From an uncultured Clostridia bacterium (lineage in GTDB: Bacteria > Bacillota > Clostridia > Christensenellales > CAG-138): DNA of 63,721 bases. The notes below the pieces were generated by a model that was given only the letters and a program-made list of their open reading frames with translations, was not told the DNA's origin and did not search any database. Position 1 is the first letter of the stretch; every line of letters starts with the position of its first letter. The translations under genes were made by a program, and so were the position numbers. Positions 4,587-27,021 of the stretch are shown here, one piece after another. The DNA is taken from the NCBI GenBank assembly GCA_905235205.1, contig CAJOKM010000001.1, positions 1 to 63,721 on the forward strand, given 5' to 3'.

Positions 4587-5822
4587 TCAGACGTGCAGCA
4601 GAGCGACGGCAACGTCATTGACGTTTGTGCCGGTCGGTCCGGTCAGAATGAGCCCGTTTGTCTTTTGCAGCGCGTGATACGCGTCGTTATTGCCGAGCAC
4701 CGCGTCCACGGTAAGACCGGCCGCGGCAAGTTCTTTTACGGTATCGGCGTCGACATAGCCGCCTGCGGCGTCGGTCGGTCCGTCGGTCCCGTCGCTGCCG
4801 ACCGAGAACACGGCGGCGTTCGGCATGTCCGAAATCCCCGCAGCGGCGGCAAGCGCCAGCTCCTGATTGCGTCCGCCGAGTCCCTTTCCGACCAGCTTGA
4901 CGACCGTTTCACCCCCGGCGATAAACGCAAGCGACTGTCCGTCAGACGCGTGTGTTTTGAGGACCGAGGCAAGGAAGCTTCCGGCTTCCTTCGCCTGACA
5001 GCAGAGCTGATCGGTCAGAAGCACGGGCGTATAGCCGAGCCGCGCGCAGGTGTTCGCCGCGGCGGCGCACAGCTCACGCACGCTGCCGTTGATCTGCGAA
5101 CGCACGTTGCTGAGGATCTTCGGCGTTTCGACGGCGAGCAGCGCGCGCGCCGCGTCGCTCATTTTAAGATCGTATTTTTTCGCGATGCGCTGCGCGTCCT
5201 CGGTCGTAGAGGAGTCCGGACATGCCGGACCGGACGCGATCATATCCAGCGGATCGCCGAGAATATCCGAGAGAATCACGGCTTCGACCTTCGCGGGCCA
5301 GACAATCTCGGCAAACCGACCGCCCTTGACGGCGGACAGGCGTTTGCGGATTGTGTTGATCTCCGTGATGTCGGCGCCGCAGGCAAGAAGCTGTCCGGTG
5401 ATATCCTGCAGCTCCCAAGCCGGGATCAGCGGCTTTTCAAACAGCGCGCTGCCGCCGCCGGAGAGCAGAAACAGCACCGTATCCTGTTCGGAGAGATCCG
5501 AAACCAGATCCAAAGCCGCCTGCGTGCCCCGAAACGAGTTTTCATCGGGAATCGGATGCCCGGCTTCGAAACAGTCGAAGTTCGCGATCGGACCTAAGAC
5601 GTGACCGTATTTTGTGACGACAACGCCCTTTTCAATGCGGCTTTTCAGCGCATCGGACGCTGCTTTTGCCATCTGCCAGGCGGCTTTACCCGCGGCAACG
5701 AGCAGGACCCGTCCGGGGAAGACCATCTTTTGGAGCGCACGCTGCACGGCGGCGTCCGGCTGCACGGCGGCGATCGCCTCCTTTACGATTTGATCCGCAT
5801 GGGAACGTAAGAGTTGATTCAT
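4587..5822 (-). CDS. Glycerate 2-kinase / hydroxypyruvate reductase family (DUF4147 + MOFRL)
   Basis: Start MNQLLRSHADQIV at 5822, overlapping the stop of the upstream gene as ATGA. Motifs LLVAAGKAA, GHPIPDENS, LFLLSGGGSAL, GGETVV, GLGGRNQELALAAA. Confidence 0.85.
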   Translation of the reverse strand: MNQLLRSHADQIVKEAIAAVQPDAAVQRALQKMVFPGRVLLVAAGKAAWQMAKAASDALKSRIEKGVVVTKYGHVLGPIANFDCFEAGHPIPDENSFRGTQAALDLVSDLSEQDTVLFLLSGGGSALFEKPLIPAWELQDITGQLLACGADITEINTIRKRLSAVKGGRFAEIVWPAKVEAVILSDILGDPLDMIASGPACPDSSTTEDAQRIAKKYDLKMSDAARALLAVETPKILSNVRSQINGSVRELCAAAANTCARLGYTPVLLTDQLCCQAKEAGSFLASVLKTHASDGQSLAFIAGGETVVKLVGKGLGGRNQELALAAAAGISDMPNAAVFSVGSDGTDGPTDAAGGYVDADTVKELAAAGLTVDAVLGNNDAYHALQKTNGLILTGPTGTNVNDVAVALLHV

Positions 5823-6100
5823 ATTAAAAACAATGTTTCTACCGCACGCCTCAGGTTTTGCTTGATGGCGGCGTAGTCGTGGGACGGACTGCATTCATAC
5901 AGCTTTTGCGTTCCTAAAAACACGCTCGGCACGCGGTAATAGTCGTATCGATCTGCAATCTCCGCGTTGCGCCGTTCCTCGATCCATTCGATCCGGTCGG
6001 CGGAAAAAGCCGGCAGCTCGGCCTCCAGCTCCCGAAAAGCGCGTTCGGCGTTGCGGCAATAGGGGCAGCCCTTTAGGTAAAAGACGGTCAGTTTATTCAT
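5819..6100 (-). CDS. Glutaredoxin/NrdH-like small thioredoxin-fold protein
   Basis: Internal start MNKLTVFYLKGCPYCRNAE (CPYC active site) at 6100 with SD GGAGGG. The upstream part of the listed ORF is Arg/Gly-rich and lacks an SD. Confidence 0.75.
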   Translation of the reverse strand: MNKLTVFYLKGCPYCRNAERAFRELEAELPAFSADRIEWIEERRNAEIADRYDYYRVPSVFLGTQKLYECSPSHDYAAIKQNLRRAVETLFLI

Positions 6101-6147
6101 AATAGCCCTCCGTACCAGTTCATGTACCGGTTCACGGTTTGGATTCC

Positions 6148-6729
6148 TTATGGCGCGATCCTGCGGATCAGTTCCTTTTGTCGAATTAGCTGATCCCGGA
6201 TGCTGCAAAACACATCCGCTTCGGTTGTTTCCGCTTCTCGGGAAGCCGGCATCGATCTGCTCCGGGCGATCGCGTCCGTATACGCCGCGATGCCTCTTTG
6301 CAAGGCACAAAGGGTTTCTTTGTCCAGGATCAACAGCTTTCCGTCCTGATAGTAGGCATGCATTTTTTCTGCTGTATCGATCAGCTCGTCAAGCGCTTCT
6401 TCTCTGATGATCCCGTCCTGTGCCGACTGAAGATACTCCAACAGCATCTCTTCCAGCGCAGCGCAGGTATTGTTGATCCGCACGGCTTCCTTTTCCGCGC
6501 GAAAGTCTTCCGCCGTTTTCCCCCGGTTTTTGAACTTCTTTCTGATCCACATGACGAAAGCGGTCAGAATGCCGAGAGAAATGCCGTAGGTAGCGGCTTC
6601 CAAAACAGCATCTCCGTCGATCCGGTTCTCGGAACCGTCGTCATGGACAGCACGACAAAGCGTTTTTCCCGAGCTGAGGCTCGAGAGCAAATCCGGGTGG
6701 ATTTCCGGATTCACACCGACTTCGATCAT
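6148..6729 (-). CDS. Hypothetical single-TM protein
   Basis: Start MIEVGVNPE at 6729 with SD GGGAGG. One hydrophobic helix (ATYGISLGILTAFVMWI) followed by a helical, acidic C-terminal half. No family recognised. Confidence 0.5.
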   Translation of the reverse strand: MIEVGVNPEIHPDLLSSLSSGKTLCRAVHDDGSENRIDGDAVLEAATYGISLGILTAFVMWIRKKFKNRGKTAEDFRAEKEAVRINNTCAALEEMLLEYLQSAQDGIIREEALDELIDTAEKMHAYYQDGKLLILDKETLCALQRGIAAYTDAIARSRSMPASREAETTEADVFCSIRDQLIRQKELIRRIAP

Positions 6730-6880
6730 CTTCAACGTTCCTCCCGACTTATCGAAAGCATTGTAGCATGAAAACCGCTGTAAAATCAACAGATATGCGA
6801 AAACGGACAGGAACCGCGGCGGAGCAAGGCGAAGCGATGATTCTTCGCATGTTTCTTGGGCATCAGAAAAAGATGCTTGG

Positions 6881-6905
6881 AGGCGCAGATACGCGCCTTT
6901 TTCTT
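6881..6905 (+). terminator. Orphan intrinsic-terminator-like hairpin
   Basis: AGGCGC-agatac-GCGCCT followed by TTTTCTT. No annotated plus-strand gene lies upstream. Confidence 0.3.
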
Positions 6906-6987
6906 ATGCTGGTTGAGGACCGTTCTCGGGGAATTGAAAGATGCGGAACCGCCGGAACGGAAATTGAGCGGAATGTGTGGCGTCGGG

Positions 6988-7020
6988 CCCGAAGGATTGT
7001 ATCACTTCGGGCAATTTTTT
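6988..7020 (+). terminator. Intrinsic-terminator-like hairpin just upstream of the TIR operon promoter
   Basis: CCCGAAG-gattgtatca-CTTCGGG followed by CAATTTTTT. Confidence 0.5.
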
Positions 7021-7028
7021 ATTTGGGA

Positions 7029-7057
7029 TTGACGGAAACAGCGGGCACGTATACAAT
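7029..7057 (+). promoter_or_regulatory. Sigma70-type promoter of the five-gene TIR operon
   Basis: TTGACG (7029-7034), 17-nt spacer, TACAAT (7052-7057). SD GGAGGA at 7097-7102; ATG at 7108. Confidence 0.6.
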
Positions 7058-7107
7058 ATATAATTGGAATAACAGAAGCGACAGCGAAGCGCACGGGGAG
7101 GATACGG

Positions 7108-7917
7108 ATGGTGAGGTTTTCGGAGCTTTTTCCGCCGTATGGGGGCGAACAGCCGTATCTGTATTTTTGCTTTTCAGACGCGGATGCGAGGCGACTGCGG
7201 TCGCTGTTTCGGCGGCTGTATGAACGCGGCTGCCGCATCTGGTACCCCATAGGGCACGGCAGCACCGCTTTAGAGCGGGAACTGCGCGATGCGCGTATGC
7301 GCAAGGCACGGCTTGTGGTCCTGTATCAGACCAAACGTGCGCGTATGGATCAGGCGGTAAAGAGCGCGGTGCTCGTTTGTCAGGAGAAGAGCATCCCGAT
7401 CATCAGCCTCGACGCGGACGACGCGGAAAGCACGCTGTCCATGGGGCTGGATTCACGCGCGGTCCATCTCAAAATGCGCAGCGTCGATGCGACGGAAACC
7501 GCATTGCTCCATGCGAACGGCTTTTCACAGGAGTTGATCGGTCCATCGTTGCCCGTTCGCAAAAAGCCGGTTCTTGCGATTGCAACCGCAATTTTCGCCG
7601 CTGTGTTTCTGATGATCGGCGCAGCGGCTCTGGTTCGGCGCCTTCGTCCGCCCCCGACGGAACAGCCCGGCGATACGGTTTTCTTTTCCGATCCCGTCCT
7701 GACCGCGGCGGTGCGGGACGCGCTTGGCGGCGAACCGATCACCGAAGAATCGCTTGAGACGGTTACGACGCTTCGTTTCGATGCGCTGCCCGAACATACG
7801 GATGAGCTTGCTTTGCTTTCCAATCTTTCCCGCATCAAATTGAATCAGGCGAATGCGGACGACGCCGCTTCGCTTCTCGAACGGTATGAAATCGTGCTGA
7901 CGGGAGGCGGGCTATGA
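7108..7917 (+). CDS. TIR-like domain / single TM / short LRR-cap protein (paralogue 1, degenerate TIR)
   Basis: The N-terminus LFPPYGGEQPYLYFCFSDAD...RIWYP...LVVLYQ parallels the gene-2 TIR core. TM helix at aa 154-176 (PVLAIATAIFAAVFLMIGAAALV). The C-terminus FFSDPVLTAAVRDALGGEPITEESLETVTTL is an internalin-type LRR N-cap. The stop overlaps the next start (ATGA). Confidence 0.8.
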   Translation: MVRFSELFPPYGGEQPYLYFCFSDADARRLRSLFRRLYERGCRIWYPIGHGSTALERELRDARMRKARLVVLYQTKRARMDQAVKSAVLVCQEKSIPIISLDADDAESTLSMGLDSRAVHLKMRSVDATETALLHANGFSQELIGPSLPVRKKPVLAIATAIFAAVFLMIGAAALVRRLRPPPTEQPGDTVFFSDPVLTAAVRDALGGEPITEESLETVTTLRFDALPEHTDELALLSNLSRIKLNQANADDAASLLERYEIVLTGGGL

Positions 7918-9089
7918 GCGTCTACTTTAAGCCGTACGAGGGCAACCGCCCCTACCTTTTCATCAGCTATTCGCACCGCGATTCCGAGGCGGTTCTCAAA
8001 ACCATCACGCTGCTGCACAATCGCAAGCTGCGGCTATGGTACGACGAGGGCATTCCGGCGGGCAGCGATTGGCCGAAAAATATCGAAGAGCATATGCAAA
8101 GCTGCTCGATGGTGCTGTTCTTTGTCTCCGAAGCCGCGTTGGATTCTCCCAACTGTCTGAGCGAGATCGAAGCCGCGCTTGCGCTGAAAAAGCCCGTTCT
8201 GCTGCTGCCGCTTTCGGATACGACGCCAAACGCAAAATGGAACGAGCTGCTTCCGCAATGTACAAGGCTTTCGTCCGGTTCCGATGCTTCTGCGCGTACC
8301 GAAACGGTTCTTTCCTGCAAACGGGTTACGCGTGCGTACTATCGCAGACCGCTTGAAAACCTGCGGTTCGATCGACTGATGCTTGTGTTCGCGCTGTTGC
8401 TGCTTGTTGCCGCCGCGACAGGACTGTATGCGCTGATAACGGGGCGGTTGGACCGCTACCTCCTTCCGCCGTCGACGCCCGTACCGACCGCGCGTCCGAC
8501 ACCGAGCGCTATGCCCGTGCCGACCGAAACGTCCGAACCGACGGCGACGCCGTACGTTCCCGGCATGGAAACGGTCACATTCCCGGATGTAAAGCAGGAA
8601 ACGGCGGTACGCAGCGCGCTGGGCGTTCCCGACGGCGATATAACGCTTTCCGATCTCGGCGGCGTGACGGAGCTGCATTTTTGCGGAACGATGGTGCTCA
8701 ACGATTTATCTGACGTCGCTTTCACAGAAGGCGCCTATGCCGTAAACGGCGCAAAACCGCTGACCGGTCCTGTCAAGGATCTCTCCGTGATCGGGCGGAT
8801 GCCGTATCTTGGGAGGCTTTCGCTGATCATGCAGCCGGTACAGTCGCTTGCCGCGCTCGATCGGCTCATGCTTCTGAACGAATTGAGCCTTGCGGGCTGC
8901 GAAAGCGTGGATCTTTCGACGCTGCCGGTGCTGCCGAGCCTCAATACGCTGCACCTTGAACACAGCAATGTGCGCGATCTTTCCGCGCTGAACACACAGC
9001 CCTCGCTTGAGACCGTGACTGTAAGTATCGATATGCTGCCGCTGACGTTTGCGGACGATGCGGCGTTTGACGTTGTTTTAGTACCGTAA
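7914..9089 (+). CDS. TIR domain / single TM / Pro-Thr linker / LRR protein (paralogue 2, canonical TIR)
   Basis: PYEGNRPYLFISYSHRDS...LWYDEGIPAGSDW...VLFFVSEAALDSPNCLSEIEAAL...PVLLLPL is a textbook bacterial TIR_2 pattern. TM at aa 155-177. Linker PPSTPVPTARPTPSAMPVPTETSEPTATP. Then LRRs (LSDLGGVTELHF, LSVIGRMPYLGRLSL, LAALDRLMLLNELSL...). Confidence 0.9.
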   Translation: MSVYFKPYEGNRPYLFISYSHRDSEAVLKTITLLHNRKLRLWYDEGIPAGSDWPKNIEEHMQSCSMVLFFVSEAALDSPNCLSEIEAALALKKPVLLLPLSDTTPNAKWNELLPQCTRLSSGSDASARTETVLSCKRVTRAYYRRPLENLRFDRLMLVFALLLLVAAATGLYALITGRLDRYLLPPSTPVPTARPTPSAMPVPTETSEPTATPYVPGMETVTFPDVKQETAVRSALGVPDGDITLSDLGGVTELHFCGTMVLNDLSDVAFTEGAYAVNGAKPLTGPVKDLSVIGRMPYLGRLSLIMQPVQSLAALDRLMLLNELSLAGCESVDLSTLPVLPSLNTLHLEHSNVRDLSALNTQPSLETVTVSIDMLPLTFADDAAFDVVLVP

Positions 9090-9119
9090 CCATTCGAACA
9101 CAGATGAAGGAGGCCTCTC

Positions 9120-12100
9120 ATGGTCAAGATTACGTACCGAAAAAAGAAGCTGTTCCCGCTGTATGCCAAGGCCGACGAGGAGAAGGTCATGCCGATCCTC
9201 GAAGCGTTGAAGGCAAAGGGATTTCCGATCGCAGACGAAAGTGATACGCCGAACAAGCGCTGCGTGATGCTGCTGTTCACGTCAGAACGGCTGAACGAAA
9301 CCCCTGCGCTTTCGGAAACGTTCTTCGCCAATGACGCGAAGGGGGTGGGGACGGTGCCGGTGAACCTCGACGGATCGATGCCGCCGGAGCTGCTGAAAAA
9401 CGCGCTCTATTCGCGCAACACGATCTTTGCCGAGCGCTACTCCGTAGACGAGCTTGCGGAACGCATAGCGACCGCAAAGCCGTTCGAAGTGTCGAAAAAG
9501 CCGCTTCCGATCATCCTTACGGCTGCCGCTGCCGTTCTCGTGATCGCCGGAGGCATTTTCTTTGCGACAAAGCTGCTGCCCGCAAAGGAAGCGGTCGCAC
9601 CTGAACCGACGGCGGAGCCGATCATTCCCACCGAAGCGGGGCTTACCGCGGCGGACCTTGAAAACGTCTATGAGCTGATCATCATCGGCGATGAATTGCA
9701 CTATTTCACCGGAACCGAAGGGATCGCGGAGAAAAACGGCTGGGCGCGCATCGGCGCCGAGTACTTTGCCAACCGCACCGAGGAGGATCTGCTCGTGCAC
9801 TGGTACAGCAAGGAGGACGGGCACGAGATCGGGCTTGCCGCATGGAACGACCTCGACTTTTTGCGGTACATGAAGAATGTGAAATTCATTACGCTTGTGC
9901 GTGTGGCGGGAGAACTTCCGGATCTTTCGGGTCTTGAAAGGCTCGACAATGTGGAACTGCTGGATTGCGACGTCACGAGCCTCGACGGACTGAAAAACGC
10001 CCGGATCGTCAATTTCGACTATTCCGGCAATACGCTGACGGACTTTTCGCCGCTGTCCGACTGCGAACGGCTTCGCTCTGCGTATCTGACGCTGTTCGAC
10101 CCGATCCCCGCCGATCTGACGTCCTTTGGGCCGCCGAGTTTGACCGAGCTTTACCTCGACACCGACAGCTCGGCAAGGACGATCGACCTTTCCGGCTTGC
10201 AGAACTGTCCCGATCTTTCGACTGTCAGGCTCGACAGCCTGCCTCTGACCGATCTTTCCTGCCTTTCCGCATGCAAAAAGCTGCACGAGCTGGAGCTTGT
10301 GACCATGCCGGAGCTTCGAAGCCTTGACGGATTACAGGATCATCAATATCTGTTTCGGCTCAGAGTCGATGAATGGAGCGAGGACCTGCGCGACTGCTCG
10401 GCGCTTTCGGACAACATAAGCCTCCATTACGTCGATCTGCATAACGGCGCATTAAACGATCTTTCGTGGCTTTCGAACGCAAAGAATCTCGAAGAGCTTG
10501 ATCTTTGGGGCATGAACGGCATGCGAAGCCTGCGTGGTCTCGAGGAGCATACAAGCTTACGGCGCGTGCATATCGAGGGGCTGGAACACCTCACCGACAT
10601 CTCTGCGCTCGAAAGCTGTACGGGACTTTTAGAGATCCATTTGAGCAGCGTCTTCGACCTTTCGGACGTCTCCCCCGTCGTGAAGCTTCCGAATCTCAAA
10701 AGTTTTGAAATCTACGGCTCGCAGCTTCGAGACGTCGGCTTCCTTTCGGATATCGTCAACAAGAACGGCTTCTCCTTCGGTATCGCGGAGGTTGACGACT
10801 GGTCGGGGCTGGAGGCGATTAAAAACTACGACTATCTGAACGTCACCGACCGCACCGGAAGCGCCCTGCCCTATCTCAGGGACGCAAAGATCCACACCTT
10901 CGAACTTTGGTGCCGCAGCGACTACAGCAATTGGAGCCGGGAGCCGCTCGACTGGTCGCAGTTCCCGAACGTCACGCAGAATCTGACGCTGCACGGGGTC
11001 GTGTCTTTGGAAGGCATGCCACAGCTTCCGATCACGGGGCTGTTCATCGACGATTCGCAGACGCTGACGTCGTTGGAGGGCATTCAGAATCTGTCAAATG
11101 CGAAAAACGGCATGCTGTGGCTGAATGTCAAGGGCTGTCCGCGTTTGACGGACTGGTCGGCGCTCGGCGGAATGAAGCTTGCCGAAATCTGCTGTGAAAA
11201 TACGTTCACGCTGCCGGACTTTGCGGCGATCGATACAAGTTCTATCGAGCTGATGGAGCCGGTCGATCTCTTCGACTTGCACTGTTTCGACGGCATGGAT
11301 CCGGATCGCAGCGTCTCCATCGAGCTGTTCCAGACGATGGACGTTACCGATCTAAAGCCGCTGTACGGAATCAAAAACGGCTACCTGCTGAAGGTCCCCG
11401 CGCATCTCGGGGAGCAGGCGCAGCTGCTGGTGGAAAGCGGCAATTTCCGCGATTACGAGATCGTCTATCCGGACGAGTGGTGGGAGCCCGCCGAGTTTCA
11501 TGTGGAGCTCCTGTCGTTCAACGAGCTCGACACGCTGCCGAGCGCGGTGTTAAGCCGTGTGAAGGATCTGAACGCGGTCGGCGATGTGATCTTTTCCTGG
11601 GAGGAGTATCGGCCGGATCAGCAATGGGACGGCGATCAGCCGACCTTTGTGCTGCAGTCGAACGACGGCGACGAAAGCCACGACATCGTGATCGAGCATC
11701 CCGGCACGCTGACCGATTTTTCCAAGCTGTCCAAACTGACCGGACTCGAACAGCTGAACCTGATCTGTCAGTCCTTTACATCGGTCGACGGCATTCAGAG
11801 TTTGCAGGAGCTTCGGGATCTTGAACTCTCCTTCACGCCGACGCTGACCGACGCGTCTCCTGCGTTCACGCTGCAGCAGCTCGAAGACCTGCACCTGCAG
11901 TATACCGGCGTGACAAGCATACAGGGCGTTCAGAATCTGCAGAATCTGCGCTGGATGGATCTGAACGGATTGAAGCTCGACGATCTCACCCCGCTCGGCG
12001 GCATACCGGAGGACTGCGGTTTCACGTTCGACTTCCCGCTGATGACGGTCGATGAATTCCTTGCGCTGCCGGACAGCGTGCTGTCTCGCATCCGCGAGAT

Positions 12101-12956
12101 CGGATTTTTCGGAAAATACGTGACAAAGGACCCGTGGGGCGATCTGTGGCTGGAGGAGGACTGGGACGGCGGCGACAGGCCGGAGCTGTATCTGCACGAC
12201 AATGCAACCGGCGAACGCTTCCCGATCGGGGAGGGACCGATTGCCGATCTTGGGCTTTTGACCCGCTTGCCGAATCTCGAAACGCTGTATTTGTACGGAC
12301 AGCCGATCGAATCGCTCGGCGGCATCGAAGCAGCCGGAAATCTCCGTCGGTTCGATTCGCGCTGGACAAATCTTTCCGATCTTTCGCCGCTGTATGATCT
12401 CCCGCAGATACAGGTCGTCTGTATCGAGAACACGGAAACGGTCACCTCGATCGAGGGCGTACAGAAGCTTCCGCATCTGACCGATCTGAACATCGGCGGC
12501 GACAACCTGACGGACATAAGCGCGATCGCAGAGATTAACTATTCGTTCTGCATGACGCCGGACGGGGACGGCAATGTGCCGTACTTCGTCCTCGGCGTGG
12601 ACAACCTGCAGGGGAAAATCCCGGATGAGCAGTATGCGGTTCTGTCCGCCGTGCCGGAGTATCAGAGCCTGAACGTGTTCAACACGGACTGCGCGCTGTG
12701 GATGGATGCTGTGAAGGATGTGAAAATCCATGAGATCCACGCGGGCAACTGCCGCTTTACCAACGAATCGTTCCGGCAGTTTATCGAACAGCACCCCGAG
12801 CTCGAATACATCAAGGTGTCGTGGACGCCGGAACTCACCGATATTTCGCCGCTTTTGACGCTTCCGAATCTGCGCGCGGCGTGCGTGTCGAACAATATGC
12901 AGCCCGCGATCCGGAGCCTGGGCGACGGATACGGGTTTGATCTCGAGATCGAATAA
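9120..12956 (+). CDS. Divergent TIR-like domain / single TM / very large LRR ectodomain protein (paralogue 3, 1278 aa)
   Basis: SD GAAGGAGG. The N-terminal ~120 aa (KKLFPLYAKADEEKVMPILEALKAKGFPI...VMLLFTSERLNETPALSETFF) is a diverged copy of the TIR core. TM at aa 129-150. More than 1,100 aa of 22-residue internalin-type LRRs follow (LTDFSPLSDCERL, LTDLSCLSACKKLHELEL, LNDLSWLSNAKNLEELDL...). Confidence 0.85.
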   Translation: MVKITYRKKKLFPLYAKADEEKVMPILEALKAKGFPIADESDTPNKRCVMLLFTSERLNETPALSETFFANDAKGVGTVPVNLDGSMPPELLKNALYSRNTIFAERYSVDELAERIATAKPFEVSKKPLPIILTAAAAVLVIAGGIFFATKLLPAKEAVAPEPTAEPIIPTEAGLTAADLENVYELIIIGDELHYFTGTEGIAEKNGWARIGAEYFANRTEEDLLVHWYSKEDGHEIGLAAWNDLDFLRYMKNVKFITLVRVAGELPDLSGLERLDNVELLDCDVTSLDGLKNARIVNFDYSGNTLTDFSPLSDCERLRSAYLTLFDPIPADLTSFGPPSLTELYLDTDSSARTIDLSGLQNCPDLSTVRLDSLPLTDLSCLSACKKLHELELVTMPELRSLDGLQDHQYLFRLRVDEWSEDLRDCSALSDNISLHYVDLHNGALNDLSWLSNAKNLEELDLWGMNGMRSLRGLEEHTSLRRVHIEGLEHLTDISALESCTGLLEIHLSSVFDLSDVSPVVKLPNLKSFEIYGSQLRDVGFLSDIVNKNGFSFGIAEVDDWSGLEAIKNYDYLNVTDRTGSALPYLRDAKIHTFELWCRSDYSNWSREPLDWSQFPNVTQNLTLHGVVSLEGMPQLPITGLFIDDSQTLTSLEGIQNLSNAKNGMLWLNVKGCPRLTDWSALGGMKLAEICCENTFTLPDFAAIDTSSIELMEPVDLFDLHCFDGMDPDRSVSIELFQTMDVTDLKPLYGIKNGYLLKVPAHLGEQAQLLVESGNFRDYEIVYPDEWWEPAEFHVELLSFNELDTLPSAVLSRVKDLNAVGDVIFSWEEYRPDQQWDGDQPTFVLQSNDGDESHDIVIEHPGTLTDFSKLSKLTGLEQLNLICQSFTSVDGIQSLQELRDLELSFTPTLTDASPAFTLQQLEDLHLQYTGVTSIQGVQNLQNLRWMDLNGLKLDDLTPLGGIPEDCGFTFDFPLMTVDEFLALPDSVLSRIREIGFFGKYVTKDPWGDLWLEEDWDGGDRPELYLHDNATGERFPIGEGPIADLGLLTRLPNLETLYLYGQPIESLGGIEAAGNLRRFDSRWTNLSDLSPLYDLPQIQVVCIENTETVTSIEGVQKLPHLTDLNIGGDNLTDISAIAEINYSFCMTPDGDGNVPYFVLGVDNLQGKIPDEQYAVLSAVPEYQSLNVFNTDCALWMDAVKDVKIHEIHAGNCRFTNESFRQFIEQHPELEYIKVSWTPELTDISPLLTLPNLRAACVSNNMQPAIRSLGDGYGFDLEIE

Positions 12957-12968
12957 GGAGGAAGAACC

Positions 12969-14999
12969 ATGGCATACACCGCTTTGGAGCAGATGCGAAC
13001 GGTCAACAGAGAGCGCTTCGGCGCGGATGTCGGACCGTTTGAACCGGCGCTGTACGGCGCGGGCAGAACGGGCAGCGATTTGAAATCCGCCGCGCTGCGG
13101 TTTTTGCACGAGCGCTGCGAGGGACTGCGCTTCTCGCCCGAAAAGGCGCAAAAGGAGAAACAGACCGGACAATATCTCGGCACGAGTTTCCGACCGAATC
13201 AGATTCCGTACAACATGCAGATGGATCTCGACCGACTTTGTCTTGAACGCGAACTGGAGAGCTTTATCGACTCCGGCGTCGCCGAGGACGCGTACACGGT
13301 CTATTACAGCTTTTTGAAGATGTTCCTCGGCGCCTACGGACGCTCGAGCAAGATGATCGAGCTTTTATCGGAGTTTGAATCGAACGCCAGCTCCCTTCTG
13401 ATGAAGCATCGCGATCACTATTCCCACTCGGTTTATGTGTTCGCGCTGGGGCTCGCGATCTACGAAACGAACGAGCGGTTCCGCACGACGTTTCAAAGAT
13501 TCTACGGCTTCACGTCCGATCGGGACGAGCATTCCGCCGCGGCGTTCTTCCTGGAATACTGGGGGCTGACCTCGCTGTTCCACGACATCGGCTACCCGTT
13601 TGAGATCCCGTTTGAACAGGTGCTCGCCTACTTCGAGGTCGACCGCAAAAAACGCGGCAACGGCAGCCTGTACCTTGCCTATCGCGACCTTGACTGCCTG
13701 TCCGGTCTGGACGAAATAACAAGCGCGCATCTTGCAGCGCTGTTCGGGAGACCGTTCGACACCGTGGAGGAGCTGCTCGCTTACGGAATCGGGAAACGGC
13801 TCGGCGCAGCATACGATGTGACGGAAGAATACCTGCTCGATACGATCCGCCGGAAACCCGTCGAACCGAACCGATTCGGATACTTCATGGATCACGCGTA
13901 TTTTTCCGCGACGCGGCTCTGTCAGGAGCTTTGCGAGGTGCTCGGCGAACAGGCGCTGACCGAAGCGCACGTCGACGCGCTGACCGCGATCATGCTGCAC
14001 AACAGCCTTTATAAGTTCGCGATCGCGTTTTATAAGGATCCGGACAGGCGAAAGCCGCCGCTCAAAGCCGAGCTGCATCCGCTTGCGTACCTTTTGATGC
14101 TGTGCGACGAGCTGCAATGCTGGGACCGTACCGCGTACGGCAGGAATTCTCGCACCGAGCTGCATCCGATGGACGCCGAGTTCGATTTCGGCAGGGGCAT
14201 GATCCACGCGCTCTACTGTTTCGACGCCGAGGAATCCGAAAAGATCGGCGAGTACGAAGCGCGCTACCGCGCGTGGGAACAGGGCGGCAAGCAGGATGCG
14301 CCCCCGCGCTTGAAGGCGTACAGCGACATGGCGGAAACCGAACAGCGCTTCCGCACGGACATCGAAAAGATCGTCGATCTAAGTGACTATCCGCTGTTTA
14401 TCACGACGTTTATGCGCACCGCGGACCGCAAGAGCAAGCATACCTATCTGTCCGGCAGCAGCTTTCTGCACATGTACGATTTTGCCGTGGCGATCAACGG
14501 ACGCTATCAGTATGAGGGCAGGGAGCAGGAAGTTTCCGTGGAGCAGCTCGAACGCGATTTTGATACGATGTCGCTCGAGTATCAGCTGAGCAACATCAAC
14601 CAGGTCAAGAGCTTCTCGAAGTACCTGAACGCGATCGGCTGCTTCTACACGGACCGCCCGGTCGATTTTGAAATGCTGCGCGCGTTTACCGCGGAACAGA
14701 CAGCCGTGTTCGCGCCGATGGAGCACGCCCGCTGGGTGCGGTCACATCGCGCGATGGACTGGACTGCCGGAAATCTCTATGAAACGGTTGCAGCGGACGG
14801 AGAAACGAACCGCTTTGTGCTGCGCGAGCAGATGCGGCAGCACAAGCTGTGCATGAACGGCGATTTCGGAGAGCTCGAGATCGCGCGGCACTATCTCAAC
14901 CTGTCCGAGGCGGATCAAGGCAAGGACTGGAAACCGTTCAATTCCATGTTGAAGCTGATCCGCAAGTTCGACGGACTGCGAATCTACAAACTCGGTTGA
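12969..14999 (+). CDS. HD-domain phosphohydrolase (SAMHD1/dGTPase-style motifs) with C-terminal RyR-type repeats
   Basis: SD AAGGAGG, 12 nt after the previous stop. HD motifs RDHYSHSVYV, LFHDIGYPFE, MLHNS, LCDELQCWDR. C-terminus MEHARWVRSHRAMDWTAGN...RQHKLCM...LSEADQGKDW...MLKLIRKFDG compares with the RyR repeat pattern (HE.W..GWTYG..K..HPCLV..LPE.EK...LKTLLALG). A degenerate first repeat is FAVAINGRY...LSNINQVKSFSKYLNAIGC. Confidence 0.85.
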   Translation: MAYTALEQMRTVNRERFGADVGPFEPALYGAGRTGSDLKSAALRFLHERCEGLRFSPEKAQKEKQTGQYLGTSFRPNQIPYNMQMDLDRLCLERELESFIDSGVAEDAYTVYYSFLKMFLGAYGRSSKMIELLSEFESNASSLLMKHRDHYSHSVYVFALGLAIYETNERFRTTFQRFYGFTSDRDEHSAAAFFLEYWGLTSLFHDIGYPFEIPFEQVLAYFEVDRKKRGNGSLYLAYRDLDCLSGLDEITSAHLAALFGRPFDTVEELLAYGIGKRLGAAYDVTEEYLLDTIRRKPVEPNRFGYFMDHAYFSATRLCQELCEVLGEQALTEAHVDALTAIMLHNSLYKFAIAFYKDPDRRKPPLKAELHPLAYLLMLCDELQCWDRTAYGRNSRTELHPMDAEFDFGRGMIHALYCFDAEESEKIGEYEARYRAWEQGGKQDAPPRLKAYSDMAETEQRFRTDIEKIVDLSDYPLFITTFMRTADRKSKHTYLSGSSFLHMYDFAVAINGRYQYEGREQEVSVEQLERDFDTMSLEYQLSNINQVKSFSKYLNAIGCFYTDRPVDFEMLRAFTAEQTAVFAPMEHARWVRSHRAMDWTAGNLYETVAADGETNRFVLREQMRQHKLCMNGDFGELEIARHYLNLSEADQGKDWKPFNSMLKLIRKFDGLRIYKLG

Positions 15000-15012
15000 A
15001 AAAGGAGAGCGT

Positions 15013-16602
15013 ATGGCAAAGCATGATACGATCCCGATCGTCGTCGGCGTGACCGGGCATCGGGATCTTCGCCCCGAGGATCGGAACGTTTTATCCGATG
15101 CCGTCAAACAGGAACTGACCGCGCTGCAGAAAAAGTGTCCTCATTCCGAGATTGTCTTGATGAGCAGTCTTGCCGCGGGCGCGGATCAGCTTTGTGCCGA
15201 GGCTGCGCGGGATTGTTCCGTTCCGCTGATTGCCGTTTTGCCGATGGAGCAGCCGGAATATGAACAGGATTTTTCGGGGGAGGAGCTTGTCGCGTTCCGC
15301 TCCATTTTGAGCGCTGCCGCGGATTGCTTTGTCGCACCTCGCACGGAGCAGGCACCGACCGCGCCGGATCGGGACTTTGCGTACCGGCAGGCGGGCATCT
15401 ATGTCGCTTCGCACGCGCACGTACTGCTTGCGCTTTGGGACGGAACCGAATCGCCCGCTTCCGGCTGCGGAACTGCGGCAACAGTGCATTTTGCGTTGGA
15501 CGGCGCATATATACCGGAGCATTCCATCCCGCTCGGCGGCGGCTGTCCCGTGCTGCAGATCCAAACGCCGCGCAACGGCACCGATGCAGTCAACGCCGGA
15601 GACGTGCGTTTTCTCGGCGATCGCGCCGCATTTGAGGAGATTTTGTCGCGAACCGACGAGTTCAACCGCCTTGCCGCAAAAACGTCCTCGTCCGGATCGG
15701 AGCTTTTGCCCGCGGACCGGGAACCGGACGCGCAGCTCGACCGGTTGGAAACGCTGTATGAAAAGGCGGACGCATTGAGCGTTCGCTTTGCAAAACAGTA
15801 CCGGAGGATTCTTGCCGCGCTCGCGGTCGTCAGCACGATCATCACGATCGCATTCCTTCTGTATGATGAAGCCGAACTGCATTGGATGATTCTCGTTTGC
15901 GGTTTTATGCTGCTGTCCGCGTGGCTGATTCAGTACAGCGGAAAACGGATCGCCTGCCATAGACGGTATCTGGAATACCGGACGCTTGCGGAAAGCATGC
16001 GCGTGCAGGCATTTCTGCGGTATGCAGGGAGCAGACTGCCCGTTTCCGGGATCCTGCCGTGGTCGGCGCGTTCGGAGACCGGATGGGTCGCCGCAGCGCT
16101 GAAGACCGGCGCCGTCAGCACGCCGTATCCCATGCACAGCATCCGTGCGCCGTGGGTGGAACAACAGAGGGATTATCACGTCCGCGCCGCGCAAAAGACG
16201 AAGCGCGCGCTGTTCTTCAGCGAGCGCATCGTCAAAGCCGCCCTTTGGATCAGTGTCGCTTTGTATCTGGGCGTTCTGGTATTCGAACTCGTTTGGGGCG
16301 ACCTGCTGCCGTTCGGCACGCATATTGCCGGTGCCGACCGCTATCGAACGCTGTCCAAACTGCTTCTCGGCGGCGTATCCGCGGCAACGCTGTTCATTTC
16401 CAATTATTTCGGGCGGCTGTCTCTCTCCCGCGCCGTTTCGGATCACAACAAAATGAAGCGGTTCTACAGCGCCGTGCTGAATCGACTCGATCGGTACGGT
16501 CAAACGGACGAACTGCTGCGGCAGCTTGCAAGGGAGGAACTGATCGAAAACGGCAGCTGGTGCTCCTACCGGCGCGACAATTCCGCCGAGTTCAGTTTGT
16601 GA
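15013..16602 (+). CDS. SLOG-like (DprA/LOG/YpsA-type Rossmann) domain fused to four TM helices (two SLATT/DUF4231-like 2-TM modules)
   Basis: SD AGGAGAG, 13 nt after the previous stop. N-domain: IPIVVGVTGHRDL, IVLMSSLAAGADQLCAEAA, PLIAVLP, VLLALWDGTESPASGCGTAATV. C-half: ILAALAVVSTIITIAFLLY / WMILVCGFMLLSAWLIQY followed by HRRYLEYRTLAESMRVQAFL. Then AALWISVALYLGVLVFELVW / LLLGGVSAATLFISNYF. Domain names from motif memory. Confidence 0.85.
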   Translation: MAKHDTIPIVVGVTGHRDLRPEDRNVLSDAVKQELTALQKKCPHSEIVLMSSLAAGADQLCAEAARDCSVPLIAVLPMEQPEYEQDFSGEELVAFRSILSAAADCFVAPRTEQAPTAPDRDFAYRQAGIYVASHAHVLLALWDGTESPASGCGTAATVHFALDGAYIPEHSIPLGGGCPVLQIQTPRNGTDAVNAGDVRFLGDRAAFEEILSRTDEFNRLAAKTSSSGSELLPADREPDAQLDRLETLYEKADALSVRFAKQYRRILAALAVVSTIITIAFLLYDEAELHWMILVCGFMLLSAWLIQYSGKRIACHRRYLEYRTLAESMRVQAFLRYAGSRLPVSGILPWSARSETGWVAAALKTGAVSTPYPMHSIRAPWVEQQRDYHVRAAQKTKRALFFSERIVKAALWISVALYLGVLVFELVWGDLLPFGTHIAGADRYRTLSKLLLGGVSAATLFISNYFGRLSLSRAVSDHNKMKRFYSAVLNRLDRYGQTDELLRQLAREELIENGSWCSYRRDNSAEFSL

Positions 16603-16903: not shown

Positions 16904-19900
16904 TTACGGCTGAAGCGGAAGCGAATCGATCAGCGCAATGACATAGCGCAGGATTGCCGCCGCATCGCCTGCAGTGACCTGTGTGTCACAGTCAACATCT
17001 GCGTTGAGCATGCCGAGCGGCGTGAGCGTCGAGAGCCCGACAATCGAGCGCAGGACCATCGCCGCGTCCGCGGAAGTGATCTTTCCGTCGCAGTTCGCAT
17101 CGCCGTACACGATCGGGATCATCGGAAGCACGACGTCCTTCGTCTGGGCCGTAAACGGCTCCTTCGTGAATACGGCGGTGTAGCGTCCGAGACCGTCCGC
17201 GCCGGGGGAGGGCTCGGTCACGACTTCATAGGTTACCGTACCCGTTTCTGTGACGATATGGCTTTCGTCATTTCTGCAGACGGCGGATGCTTCAACCGTA
17301 TAGCCCGTATCGGTCTCTGCCCATACATAGACGGGTTCGCCGTAATCGTGTCCCGTTGCGCCGAGCGTTTCGGCGACCGTATTTGTAAAGGCCTTTTCGT
17401 GGAAGACGACCGTCGCCGTATGTTTGCGCTCGCCTTCTGTCGTGCAGCCCGGATGAACCGTGATCTCGGTTTCGATCGCGTCGCCCGCGGCTGCAACATC
17501 GATCTTGAACGTTGCGTCATCCTTTGCGGTGAACGTCGCAGTTGCGGACGAATAATCTTCCGCCCACTGCCAGGTCGGCTCATTGTACAGCCGCGCAGAC
17601 TGCGTGTACGTCGCAGTGTAAACGGCGTTTCCGACGGCAGGACTCAACTGAGGGGTCCAACCGCTGAACGTGTAGAGATATGCTTCCGTCGGCGCCTTAA
17701 CCGGAGTTTCTCCGGTGTATACGGGCGTCTCTCCATGCTCCGTTTCCACGCGCAGCAGTTCGGTGCCGTCTTCATTTTGGAAGATGATCACGTAGACAGC
17801 CTTTTTAAACGTTGCGGAAACGGTGACATTGCCTTTCGGCATAACGAACGAAGCAGTGTTGTCATCGTTCAGTGTGACCTCAACCGTGTTCGATCCCTGT
17901 GTGACCGTGACCGTGTCGAGCACATAGCCGGTTTCCGGCTCGAAGGTCAGTGTGACGGTCTCGTTTTCTTCGGCGTAGGGCTTATCCGCCGAGACCGTGC
18001 CGTTCCCGGTTCCGGCGGAAACGGTGACCTGATACATCCGCGCTACCTTGATGTAGTTTGCAAACCATTCGCTTCCGGTGCCCTTGTGCGGGCGGAAGTA
18101 GACGCGATAGCGGCCGCTTGCGGTGATCTCGCCGTGTTCGCCGTAGTTGTTGCCCATGCCGGTCGGGTACCAGGTCGTTGTTGCCGAGCCGTTGGCAGAA
18201 TACACAACCTTGAACTGGCTGGACGTTGTCAGGTTGATTTCATGCTTGTATTCCTCGGGATCGACGCCGATCTTCGTCATCTTATATGCGGAGTTGACGC
18301 TCCAGCCGGTCATGCTGCCGACCAAATAATATCCGGACGCTGCCAGCGGAGAATTCGGATCCACATAGAGACAGTTCTTGAACCAGTCGTCGGGTCCGTC
18401 GTAGCCCGGACGGAAATAGACGCGGTAAACGCCGCCTTCGGTGATCTCGCCGTTCTCGCCGTAGTTCTCCGACGGATCGGGGTACCAGACCGTTTTCTCC
18501 ACGCCGTCATCGGAGTACACGACCTTGAACTGGTCGTTCGTCATCAGTTCAACGTCGAGATAGTATTCGTTCGTGCTGGCGAACTCGTTCTTCGTCAGCA
18601 TGTATTCCGGCTTGAGGCTCCAGCCGTTCATGGTGCCGACGAGGTAGTATCCTTCCGCCTCGATGGGTGTCGCCTCGATCAGTTCAATGTAAATGCAGTT
18701 TTTATACCAGTCGTCCCCGCCGGAATAATCCGGGCGGAAATAGACGTGATAGGTGCCGCGTACGGTAATCTGATCGTCTACGCCGAAGTTGTCCGCCGGA
18801 TCGGGGAACCACTTTGTTTTGGTCTCGCCGTCCGCAGAGTATACGACCTTGAACTCGTCGCCCGTCTTCAGTTCGAGGTCGATGACGTATTCGTTCGCAG
18901 CGGTTCCCTCGTTCTCGGACAGCTTGTAGGCCGGATTGATATTCCAGTCGCTCATCGTACCGACCAGATAATATCCCTCGCCGCCGACAGCGGTCTTTTC
19001 ATACCAGCTCCAGGTGCCGCTTCCGTTCCAGTCGTCTTCCGTGACCGTGAAACAGTTGGTGCCGTTATCCGGATACAGATCGGCCGTCTGGTTCCACCTG
19101 GCGTCCCAGTTGTTCTCGGCGGCGTCCGGATCCATTCGGCAGAAAATCACCTTATTCCATTCGCCCTCGGGAAGTTCCGCTTCATAGACGCCGTCCCCGT
19201 CCTCGTCGGTCATGCCGACCCATTGCTCGTCGAGGCCGGTGTTATAGACGTACATTGCAAAACGGGCGCCGTCCTGTTTCCAGGTTTCGCTCGGTATCAG
19301 ATACAGAGGGGAAACATTGAGACTGTCCGTCGGAGCGTTTTCCGGCGTGTAGATGACGGCAACGCCGCTTGCGCCGACGGTGCCGCTGATGACGCCCTGC
19401 GATACGGTGAACGTGTTCTTCGTGACCTGATCCGTGTAGACGCCGTCCTTCATCCGGTATACAGGCAAACTGACCGCGCCCGCGCCGTTGAGATTTGAAA
19501 TCACGATTCCGTTCGTGCCGCGCTCAATGTATGCAACGTTGCCCGAGGAGGAAAGGTATTCGCTGGTTCCGTCAAAGTGATTCTTGAACTTGTTGATCTC
19601 CGCGACCGAAGGATCCTTCCACGTTTCATCGGTACTCGCCATACCCATCGTCTCGTTCGGTCTTGCCAGGAACAGCGAGGTGGAATCCGCTCTCGCGCCG
19701 ACGATCGCCCATGTCCTGACGATCACTGCGTCGGAGATGCCGGACGAATTATTGTGCATATAGGTGTCGTGCGATTCCGCCCAGAGCACACAGTCCCGCG
19801 GGATCGCTTTTTTCTGATACTGGAAGCTTGCAAGTCCGGAGGCGTTTTTGCTGTTCGCGTTCGAGCGCGCGCTGTCGCCGGTGTCGTTGTCGGTCACGGC

Positions 19901-21147: not shown

Positions 21148-21164
21148 GATAAGTCAACATTGAT

Positions 21165-21190
21165 TGGTTTGATGGATGTTGATAAACCGA
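21165..21190 (-). repeat. Second, degenerate anti-repeat-like copy upstream (5') of the functional anti-repeat
   Basis: 21170-21187 (TGATGGATGTTGATAAAC) is identical to repeat positions 13-30. The flanks are diverged and it lacks the part complementary to the repeat 5' end. Confidence 0.8.
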
Positions 21191-21212
21191 CATCATCCCT
21201 GAGCACAGAATC

Positions 21213-21241
21213 ACTATACCACAGAAACAGTAAGGAGTCAA
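21213..21241 (-). promoter_or_regulatory. Strong sigma70-type promoter for tracrRNA, overlapping the cas9 SD
   Basis: Minus strand: TTGACT (21241-21236), 17-nt spacer, TATAGT (21218-21213), with an upstream TG (extended -10 TGGTATAGT). The -35 overlaps the cas9 SD AAGGAG (21232-21237). Confidence 0.65.
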
Positions 21242-21243
21242 GT

Positions 21244-25262: not shown

Positions 25263-25582
25263 TAAATCGATTTATGCGGGTGATGGTTTTTTTCGATTTG
25301 CCGGTGAATACGGCAAAGAAACGAAGGGAGTATACGCAGTTTCGACGTTATCTGATTCAGGACGGTTATTTCATGCTCCAGTATTCGGTATACGCCCGAA
25401 CGGTGCGAAACAGGGATGACGCAGAAAGTCACATCGCAAAACTGAAATCGGCGCTGCCGCCGGAAGGATCGGTTCGTGCTTTGCTTGTAACCGAGAAACA
25501 GTACGAAAACATGCGTGTTTTATTGGGAGATCGCTATGCGGAAGAAGCATATCTTGACTCAACCGATTTACTGGAGTTATAA
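25259..25582 (+). CDS. cas2: Cas2
   Basis: ATGA overlap with the cas1 stop. MRVMVFFDLPVNTAKKRREYTQFRRYLIQDGYFMLQYSVYAR is the typical Cas2 beta1-alpha1-beta2 pattern. Confidence 0.93.
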   Translation: MINRFMRVMVFFDLPVNTAKKRREYTQFRRYLIQDGYFMLQYSVYARTVRNRDDAESHIAKLKSALPPEGSVRALLVTEKQYENMRVLLGDRYAEEAYLDSTDLLEL

Positions 25583-25616
25583 TACTTGTGGCAGAAGGCC
25601 GGGAAATACCAAAAAA

Positions 25617-25636
25617 CCGCAAGATGTTGCGGTTTT
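25617..25636. terminator. Small bidirectional hairpin between cas2 and the first repeat
   Basis: AAAAAA-CCGCAA-gatg-TTGCGG-TTTT. The 3' G and the U-tract belong to repeat 1. On the minus strand the hairpin is followed by U6. Confidence 0.35.
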
Positions 25637-26918: not shown

Positions 26919-27021
26919 CGGCGCAATGAACGAATTCTTGCGCACCTGCTCGATACGCCTTCTTGCGTCATCCAGGACCGCTGTGGAATAGCGAATCATA
27001 AAACCCTCCGTCGACTCGATG

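Follow-up and report, generated by a model that had tools for sequence, protein, structure and literature searches.

The 63,721-nt stretch of contig CAJOKM010000001.1 from an uncultured Clostridia bacterium (hereafter, the window) carries, at positions 7029–16602, a cassette of five genes encoding TIR-type membrane proteins with leucine-rich repeats (LRRs), a protein with HD-type motifs and a ryanodine receptor (RyR)-like domain, and a SLOG protein with four transmembrane (TM) helices. The cassette is real, widely conserved, and best filed as a variant of TIR/Thoeris-type signaling. With moderate confidence, we read it as a Thoeris-like TIR second-messenger system in which a membrane receptor, not a cytosolic protein, serves as the sensor. 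What is new is the use of membrane-anchored TIR receptors with sensors predicted to be extracytoplasmic, the presence of probably noncatalytic TIR-like co-receptors, and the finding that the TIR genes are most constantly accompanied by an HD-RyR gene of the host. The features of the cassette are listed below, with lengths in amino acids (aa).

7029..7057, + strand: sigma-70-type promoter candidate TTGACG-17-TACAAT, with 10 of 12 consensus matches, 51 nt upstream of gene 1
7108..7917, + strand: gene 1, 269 aa; TIR-like domain without the catalytic Glu, TM helix, short LRR cap
7914..9089, + strand: gene 2, 391 aa; TIR domain, TM helix, Pro/Thr-rich linker, LRRs
9120..12956, + strand: gene 3, 1278 aa; degenerate TIR-like N-terminus, TM helix, internalin-type LRRs
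12969..14999, + strand: gene 4, 676 aa; HD-type motifs, beta-rich middle region, C-terminal RyR (Repeat12)-like domain
14466..14963, + strand: RyR/Repeat12-like domain of gene 4, approximately aa 500–665, with candidate ligand residues aligned by MAFFT
15013..16602, + strand: gene 5, 529 aa; YpsA-type SLOG domain followed by four TM helices

The TIR domain of gene 2 (aa 16–100) matched Pfam TIR_2 with an E value of 4.6e-17 (63 bits against a cut-off of 28) and, more weakly, the ThsB_TIR and PADLOC ThsB-like models. Its catalytic residue, Glu84, lies within a C-x-S-E motif, and S83-E84 was invariant across 14 orthologues; the TIR domain and the Glu codon at 8163–8165, both pointed out in a first-pass annotation of this DNA, were thereby confirmed. 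A TM helix at approximately aa 157–175 is followed by the Pro/Thr-rich linker and then by the LRRs. Gene 2 is predicted to encode an active NADase and to be the signal generator.

Judging from the sequences, catalytic competence is apparent only in gene 2, and genes 1 and 3 probably encode noncatalytic TIR-like partners, because the catalytic Glu is not conserved in either family. Gene 1 reached an E value of 0.028 at best with TIR_2 and was connected to the gene-2 TIR family by hhalign (99.6%, E value 2e-24); the position equivalent to Glu84 is Ala in the window protein, and Glu is not conserved across the gene-1 family. It has one TM helix (approximately aa 155–173) and an ectodomain made of the short LRR cap, and at many loci its orthologues lie immediately upstream of gene-2 orthologues. 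The N-terminus of gene 3 (aa 1–125) also aligned with the gene-2 TIR domain (hhalign, 91.8%, E value 7e-7) in a shortened and degenerate form. The window protein has Glu at the aligned catalytic position, which its family does not conserve. A single TM helix (approximately aa 131–149) precedes a very long LRR region (LRR_4, E value 3e-26; internalin_A, E value 1e-26), and gene 3 is predicted to be the main ligand-binding subunit. At five loci (L013, L016, L033, L050, and L054), the gene-3-type long LRR receptor gene was present in two or three tandem copies, which suggests diversification of this subunit. The earlier description of genes 1–3 as TIR-TM-LRR receptors thus stood for the single TM helix of each protein, the TIR domain of gene 2, and the LRRs of gene 3; the TIR-like region of gene 1 was clear by profile-profile comparison only, that of gene 3 was degenerate, and a conserved catalytic Glu is kept by gene 2 alone.

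No hydrophobic N-terminal stretch was found in genes 1–3, each of which has a single TM helix. The count of Lys and Arg residues flanking the helix was 3.5 on the N-terminal side and 1.05 on the C-terminal side in the gene-2 family, and 3.8 and 2.0, respectively, for gene 3. Because this charge bias fits the positive-inside rule, the TIR domains would be cytoplasmic and the LRRs extracytoplasmic, as in type II membrane proteins. The outward orientation of the LRRs is further backed by Hanks kinases at sibling loci, which share the TM-LRR layout.

The AlphaFold2 (AF2) model of gene 5 was confident (predicted local distance difference test [pLDDT] score, 87.8). Residues 1–225 (positions 15013–15687) form a SLOG fold, which Foldseek matched to Bacillus subtilis YpsA (2nx2) with an E value of 6e-5, a probability of 1.0, and a TM score of 0.63. 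Further Foldseek matches were DprA, ShosA, and the LOG-like proteins TM1055 and TT1887, together with a weak match to the SLOG domain of ThsA (E value 0.12). At the sequence level, Pfam YAcAr was reached with an E value of 3.6e-5 (23.9 bits against 28.2), and a search of the PDB gave no match. Residues 240–529 contain four long TM helices. The first helix pair scored just under the cut-off of Pfam DUF4231 (24.0 against 24.7 bits) and below that of NCBIfam SLATT_3 (21.4 against 45 bits); PF14015 was precomputed on many gene-5 orthologues. An internal duplication of the TM region was not supported (hhalign probability, 1.9%). The proposal of a SLOG domain joined to four TM helices was therefore upheld, and of the two DUF4231/SLATT-like modules proposed with it, the first matched just below threshold and the second lacked the support of a duplication. 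From its model, gene 5 is a predicted messenger-gated membrane effector.

Gene 4 alone had no Pfam, NCBIfam, PADLOC, or PDB sequence match, and an alignment of 37 orthologues used as a profile against the PDB also gave none. Pfam RyR was detected weakly in 12 of the 37 orthologues (at most 20.9 bits against the gathering cut-off of 27.4) and not in gene 4 itself. A 582-aa paralogue found at the same operon position elsewhere is colinear with gene 4 (25% identity, E value 2e-32); it passed Pfam RyR (PF02026) at 50.5 bits and matched RyR Repeat12 structures and the RyR-like protein of Bacteroides thetaiotaomicron with E values of 4e-23 to 7e-11. When gene 4 was aligned by MAFFT with the B. thetaiotaomicron RyR, RyR2 repeats, and paralogues, it retained E-H586-x-x-W589, G-W-x-x-G, H625, and D653 and showed two insertions. 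The candidate ligand residues are His586 (codon 14724–14726), Trp589 (14733–14735), His625, and Asp653 (14925–14927); H586, W589, and D653 were invariant in the 37 orthologues, and H625 was present in at least 90% of them. Among 10 distant relatives of 781–1070 aa scanned with Pfam, RyR matches were found in two only, and no informative fusions were seen. The RyR-type region that had been proposed for gene 4 is thus supported through the colinear paralogue and its Repeat12 structure matches, gene 4 itself giving no Pfam match.

Phage proteins of the PF02026 family bind or cleave 2'cADPR, 3'cADPR, and cyclic ADP-ribose (cADPR), according to two 2026 preprints (PMC13232231; 10.64898/2026.06.04.730250). 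In RyDEP, the catalytic residues are His75 and Asp117, with Trp78 stacking on the adenine and His100 contacting the phosphates; of eight homologues tested, six bind the signals, some as sponges (PMC13232231). RyR Tad binds 3'cADPR with a dissociation constant of 43 nM, as well as 2'cADPR and cADPR, through H129/W132, K147/H154, and K170/D171 (10.64898/2026.06.04.730250). The residues H586, W589, H625, and D653 of gene 4 are equivalent to H75, W78, H100, and D117 of RyDEP and to H129, W132, H154, and D171 of RyR Tad. Because the RyR-like domain of gene 4 is placed, through its paralogue, in this family of cADPR-isomer-binding or -cleaving proteins, the operon would have RyR as well as SLOG as a candidate receiver of the signal. 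The core logic of the first-pass annotation, a TIR enzyme and receivers of a nucleotide messenger in one operon, holds and is strengthened by RyR as the second candidate receiver.

In the HD-type region of gene 4, the motifs H147-R-D-H150-Y-S-H153, F-H205-D206-I-G-Y-P, D308-H309, H344-N, and C-D380-E-L-Q-C-W-D-R were invariant across the 37 orthologues. The motif order H...HD...D is the pattern of HD phosphohydrolases. Pfam HD was reached in seven of the 37 orthologues at 14–18 bits against a cut-off of 22, residues ~152–211 corresponding to profile positions 3–41, and all formal scores were subthreshold. The HD motifs noted earlier were accordingly kept as to H150/H153, H205-D206, and D380, all invariant, and not as a formal family match. 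The AF2 model had a pLDDT score of 79, with low confidence in the motif loops (137–148, 210–237, and 387–400); its weak Foldseek matches included the HD-like C-terminal region of PPX and PDE10 structures (E values above 0.04). The sequence pattern leads us to predict an HD-type, metal-dependent phosphohydrolase-like domain, with gene 4 receiving or processing the signal made by the TIR. The more specific label "SAMHD1/dGTPase-style" was not supported and was dropped: hhalign against Escherichia coli Dgt gave 2.9% over 15 columns, covering the "HDIG" motif alone, and the PDB sequence and profile searches were empty.

Relatives of gene 4 numbered more than 2,000 at the 90% cluster level, all unnamed, and 1,210 clusters at 50% identity (E value ≤ 1e-3). 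They occurred in 521 of 185,579 GTDB species representatives, nearly all of them metagenome-assembled genomes of rumen or gut Bacillota, with Clostridia, Lachnospiraceae, Oscillospiraceae, Erysipelotrichaceae, and Blautia among the taxa. The named homologues that we saw were all annotated as hypothetical, and none of the best 120 had a precomputed Pfam match. A phage origin of gene 4 was rejected, a single locus being found in 2.9 million IMG/VR viral contigs.

Gene linkage was examined at 47 gene-4 loci flanked on each side by 5 kb or more. A TIR open reading frame (ORF) was nearby at 40 of these, mostly adjacent and on the same strand; a SLATT gene was present at 22, and one or the other at 42. 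About 20 of the 47 loci had a TIR gene and gene 4 with neither a SLATT gene nor another recurrent neighbor. Nine metagenome contigs anchored on gene 2 extended far enough to be informative: gene 4 or its paralogue was found in eight, gene 5 in eight, and both in seven. The exception L106 (JAEEGH010012501.1) has genes 2, 3, and 5; gene 4 was absent from the 8.5 kb upstream and from the 9 kb downstream. Genes 1–3 and genes 4–5, which had been treated as one unit from this single window, therefore do occur together in other genomes. The most constant pair is TIR plus HD-RyR, while the sensor part and the membrane effector vary. Because the core across genomes is this pair and not TIR plus SLOG-4TM, gene 4 is better seen as a primary receiver, an accessory role being less likely, which alters its earlier assignment as a second effector or signal-clearing enzyme beside the SLOG-4TM protein.

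The same five-gene order was found at other loci in differing chromosomal neighborhoods. A permuted order, 4-1-2-3-5, was also seen, with a small conserved gene of 185–201 aa after gene 4 and often a Ser/Thr kinase-TM-LRR gene ahead. The latter encodes a 572-aa protein of receptor-kinase layout and lies directly upstream of the gene-4 orthologue at seven loci (L003:8150-9862, L092:8146-9864, and five more); it may add a second receptor to the pathway or regulate the HD-RyR protein by phosphorylation. At eight loci (L001, L024, L027, L029, L031, L087, L088, and L090), TIR-TM-coiled coil-WD40 proteins of 813–941 aa take the place of the LRR receptors, and L043 encodes a 1154-aa TIR-TM-PT linker protein with a GH88-like ectodomain. 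Other layouts were a TIR-TM-coiled coil-WD40 gene with genes 4 and 5, a TIR receptor with gene 4 alone, and gene 4 with a soluble TIR-TIR-TPR/Sel1 or BspA-LRR-TIR-Sel1 protein, with or without a SLATT-only protein of ~320 aa, which occurs at about a third of gene-4 loci. By Pfam, the sensor domains on the partner TIR proteins were TM-LRR, TM-WD40 propeller, TM-GH88-like, TPR/Sel1, and BspA-LRR. Since the WD40 and GH88-like versions adjoin gene-4 orthologues, the design with TIR inside and sensor outside recurs with unrelated ectodomains. When ORFs near gene 4 were clustered, the only recurrent neighbors were TIR, LRR, SLATT, TIR-WD40, and the kinase-TM-LRR proteins of the seven loci. The TIR-WD40 and gene-4 pair of L090 has a LOG-like SLOG protein upstream (6612–7142; Lysine_decarbox/LDcluster4, 176 aa) and an FMN-reductase-like protein downstream (12041–13396, 451 aa); such neighbors were limited to close relatives (L025 and L030).

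The five ORFs of the window are all on the + strand and are spaced by -4, 30, 12, and 13 nt. A purine-rich Shine-Dalgarno site lies ahead of every start: GGGGAGGA, GGGAGG, GAAGGAGG, AAGGAGGA, and AAAGGAGA for genes 1–5 in order. These spacings, and a Shine-Dalgarno site for each gene, had been given in the first-pass annotation and were verified. The sequence of its promoter, TTGACG-17-TACAAT, is present at 7029–7057 in the intergenic stretch next to a divergent upstream gene, and the count of promoter-like sites in the region (three found against 3.8 expected from shuffled sequence) was no higher than in shuffles. The promoter is plausible, being credible by its location and not by statistics. 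In a terminator scan, counts were at the chance level, and no clear terminator was seen behind gene 5. The idea of a single transcript is accordingly based on the gene spacing and the conservation of the cluster, not on signal statistics. Upstream of the promoter, there are two overlapping ORFs on the - strand, 6148–6789 (213 aa) and 5819–6310 (163 aa, with a CPYC motif), for which no Pfam match at E ≤ 1e-5 was found.

The next gene downstream of the cassette is convergent (16904–20749, - strand) and encodes a secreted alpha-amylase of 1281 aa that includes an InlB B-repeat-like domain and ends in a type I dockerin. This dockerin-bearing amylase, located between the cassette and a CRISPR locus, points to a cellulosome-type organism. 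The CRISPR-Cas locus that had been noted ~4.5 kb from the cassette is of type II and lies downstream (window 21160–26919), with the following features.

21160–24384: Cas9, 1074 aa, with HNH and RuvC_III
24345–25262: Cas1 of the type II CRISPR-Cas locus
~25632–26919: CRISPR array, 20 copies of a 36-nt repeat with a period of 65–66 nt

The GC content was 0.49–0.51 over 20–28 kb and ~0.57 elsewhere in the window, and the low value at the CRISPR region therefore suggests horizontal acquisition. The proximity to CRISPR-Cas is specific to this window.

From the domain identities, residue conservation, and linkage observed above, we infer a topology, a messenger, an activation mechanism, and an outcome for the cassette. 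The proteins of genes 1, 2, and 3 probably assemble into a hetero-oligomeric membrane receptor complex, in which the long LRR region of gene 3, aided by the short LRRs of genes 1 and 2, would bind an envelope or extracellular cue. Clustering driven by the ligand would join the TIR domains and activate gene 2, apparently the sole catalytically intact one, which by analogy with TIR biochemistry would turn NAD+ into a cADPR-type messenger. This messenger may be read by gene 4 through its RyR/Repeat12 domain, which would control, or feed substrate to, the HD-like hydrolase domain of the same protein; gene 4 would act either as a hydrolytic effector or as a signal remover. The SLOG domain of gene 5 may also read the messenger, opening or oligomerizing the four-TM SLATT-like module and thereby perturbing the membrane, an action that has been proposed for SLATT effectors and for ThsH of type VII Thoeris. 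The cell would most likely stop growing or die in a conflict or anti-phage response; the outcome could equally be non-lethal signaling.

Several observations weigh against this Thoeris-like reading. The RyR match of gene 4 depends on transitive homology, its HD assignment falls under every curated threshold, and Foldseek of its AF2 model against the PDB and BFVD returned nothing at E ≤ 0.001, so that neither HD nor RyR was confirmed at the level of the fold. Extracytoplasmic sensing is without precedent in Thoeris, and we counted the extracytoplasmic sensors as pointing away from a role in conflict. Both tested candidates with a "SLOG and 4TM" effector, a predicted Thoeris configuration compared below, gave no defense in E. 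coli (10.64898/2025.12.03.692087). Gene 4 is 60–90% identical across Lachnospiraceae, Oscillospiraceae, and Erysipelotrichaceae, unusually high for an immune effector (gene 5, ~50–70%; gene 2, ~45–55%; genes 1–3 are far less conserved than gene 4), which may be due to strong constraint or to a recent horizontal spread through rumen bacteria. Finally, the two nearest ORFs on each side were scanned in 33 species, and the 102 flank ORFs were mostly housekeeping or metabolic by Pfam, with few and generic PADLOC matches to ATPases or kinases and with no background rate behind the comparison. The flanks in other genomes included purine biosynthesis, spoVA, tgt/queA, transketolase, IF-2, and ABC transporters, and housekeeping flanks were seen, for example, at L001, L004, L007, L090, and L092. 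With flanks of this kind, there is no defense-island signal, and the proposed immune role was not supported by the genomic context, the CRISPR locus being found only here; the flank result is absence of evidence, not evidence of absence. The sensors, which sibling loci supplement with the kinase-TM-LRR receptor, the housekeeping flanks, the conservation of gene 4, and the near absence of the cassette from phage contigs would all suit a non-immune transmembrane pathway of gut Firmicutes. Here, surface receptors would respond to a cue from the environment, the host, the cell wall, or other cells, and a cADPR-type messenger would regulate a channel-like SLOG-4TM protein and the HD enzyme with no killing; a synthase, a hydrolase, and a ligand-gated membrane protein would indeed resemble other second-messenger modules. 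We regard such a pathway as possible but doubtful, as all bacterial TIR+SLOG or TIR+SLATT operons characterized so far are anti-phage, SLATT modules are known membrane-disrupting effectors, and the patchy distribution (521 of 185,579 species), permuted gene order, tandem LRR receptor genes, and swapped sensor domains are typical of conflict systems.

The role of gene 4 admits a different account, in which it terminates the signal: a RyDEP-like RyR glycosidase would linearize cyclic ADPR and the HD domain would hydrolyze ADPR, making gene 4 a built-in off-switch or threshold, as a phosphodiesterase is, and leaving gene 5, or an unlinked protein where gene 5 is missing, as the sole output. What speaks for termination is that the equivalents of the RyDEP catalytic dyad, His586 and Asp653, are invariant in the 37 orthologues and that HD domains, as in HD-GYP, PgpH, and SpoT, are classic hydrolases of signaling nucleotides. 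Very high conservation would also fit an enzyme acting on a fixed small molecule, and L106, with genes 2, 3, and 5, shows that a minimal chain can do without gene 4. The same His and Asp, however, occur in noncatalytic RyR sponges and in animal RyRs and hence do not discriminate, and the ~20 loci with TIR and gene 4 alone would be left with a generator and a degrader but no nearby output. We consider termination rather unlikely, and the effector role of gene 4 is favored because those ~20 loci have no other recurrent partner. It is also conceivable that the gene-2 TIR domain is itself the effector and depletes NAD+, as in TIR-pAgo, CBASS-TIR, and AVAST, with genes 4 and 5 unrelated or accessory. 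Many bacterial TIR domains are NAD+-depleting effectors, and a cyclase and a hydrolase are indistinguishable from sequence alone; yet SLOG and RyR, two different domains of the kind that bind TIR products, are found in tight linkage with TIR genes in hundreds of species, which is hard to explain without a diffusible product and makes depletion very improbable. Returning to the Thoeris-like reading that we prefer, we offer, tentatively, an "outside-in" TIR pathway in which surface receptors bearing LRRs or a beta-propeller would respond to something outside the cell, for instance an adsorbing phage or a foreign cell, and produce a cADPR-type messenger for RyR and for a SLOG-gated membrane protein.

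If this reading is true, TIR/Thoeris signaling would extend from cytosolic phage sensing to surface receptors in a Toll-like layout of reversed polarity. The bacterial RyR (Repeat12) domain, so far known from phage counter-defense only, would gain a cellular role as a receiver or processor of NAD-derived messengers, which would bear on whether the Repeat12 domain of animal RyRs senses cADPR. The gene-4 family would be a large and uncharacterized one (521 species-level genomes and >1,200 clusters at 50% identity), and a conserved TIR system outside defense islands would have escaped guilt-by-association screens. The outside-in pathway, if true, would comprise the first host-encoded RyR-domain effector and the first Thoeris-like system with extracytoplasmic sensing; it would also be a prokaryotic assembly of three modules of animal Toll-like receptor and cADPR/ADPR-RyR/TRPM2 signaling.

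We compared the cassette with known systems. PADLOC (2023) called no system from the five proteins; it gave a weak ThsB-like match for gene 2, a marginal ShosA match for gene 5, and none for genes 1, 3, and 4. The first-pass annotation had called the cassette a candidate undescribed system. This held for the combination of TM-LRR receptors with a host HD-RyR partner, which was not found in the literature searched, a body that did not cover Burroughs et al. 2015 (NAR, on SLOG/SLATT), and did not hold for TIR+SLATT (type VII) and TIR+"SLOG and 4TM," both of which are catalogued. RyR, HD, LRR, or WD40 partners are not mentioned in the text or the tables examined of Yirmiya et al. (10.64898/2025.12.03.692087), and the only RyR-Thoeris links in the literature searched were the two preprints on phage anti-defense (PMC13232231; 10.64898/2026.06.04.730250).

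Thoeris types I, III, and IX combine one or more TIR proteins with SLOG effectors (10.64898/2025.12.03.692087). The cassette resembles type I (ThsB and the SIR2-SLOG protein ThsA) and type III in having SLOG as the predicted receiver of a TIR-made cADPR isomer, and type III also in having several TIR paralogues per operon. In those systems, however, the effector output is SIR2 or another domain and not four TM helices, the ThsA SLOG was only a weak fold match to gene 5, and gene 2 scored far below the NCBIfam ThcB equivalog models of type III (ThcB4, 15.3 bits against a cut-off of 220). In ThsA, the SLOG domain is the sensor of 3'cADPR. Type VII Thoeris consists of the TIR protein ThsB and the SLATT effector ThsH, which responds to the canonical cADPR used as its signal (10.64898/2025.12.03.692087). 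Type VII shares with the cassette a TIR gene linked to a SLATT-type multi-TM effector that is predicted to breach the membrane upon binding the TIR product. By contrast, ThsH is a SLATT protein without SLOG, ThsB is a soluble phage-sensing TIR protein, neither an HD-RyR gene nor a TM-LRR receptor is present, and gene 5 scores under the curated SLATT_3 and DUF4231 cut-offs.

A "SLOG and 4TM" effector with a TIR protein is among 29 predicted Thoeris configurations, with examples in Streptomyces sp. GKU 895 and Ca. Nitrospira nitrosa (10.64898/2025.12.03.692087, Tables S1 and S2). Its effector has the architecture of gene 5, a SLOG domain with four TM helices beside a TIR gene, and the configuration differs in being an unnamed two-gene operon with a soluble TIR. 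When the gene-2 TIR profile was scored against the 24 ThsB representatives of Yirmiya et al. Table S1, the best match was the "4TM SLOG" TIR of Ca. Nitrospira nitrosa (25.8 bits), followed by type III TIR1 and TIR4. These scores are weakly consistent with genes 2 and 5 belonging to the predicted "4TM SLOG" class.

Gene 4 shares with RyDEP and RyR Tad the conserved His-x-x-Trp, His, and Asp residues and probably the PF02026 Repeat12 fold family. Those are small phage-encoded sponges or glycosidases that turn Thoeris off; gene 4 is encoded on the host chromosome beside a TIR gene, is 676 aa long, and carries an HD-like fusion. Animal Toll-like receptors likewise join LRRs outside the cell to a TIR domain in the cytoplasm through a single TM helix, but the polarity of the cassette proteins is reversed, with TIR N-terminal and LRR C-terminal, and their TIR is a predicted enzyme, not a scaffold. 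The animal cADPR/ADPR-RyR/TRPM2 axis offers RyR Repeat12 and a SLOG-type domain, MHR1/2 of TRPM2, as readers of NAD-derived messengers, whereas in gene 4 the RyR-like domain is joined to a predicted hydrolase domain and not to a Ca2+ channel. No evidence was obtained for common descent of the whole pathway with the animal Toll-like receptor, RyR, and TRPM2 modules. Set beside the general definition of Thoeris, the cassette has a TIR domain with the predicted catalytic Glu in gene 2 and, in the adjacent genes 4 and 5, domains of the kind that bind TIR products.

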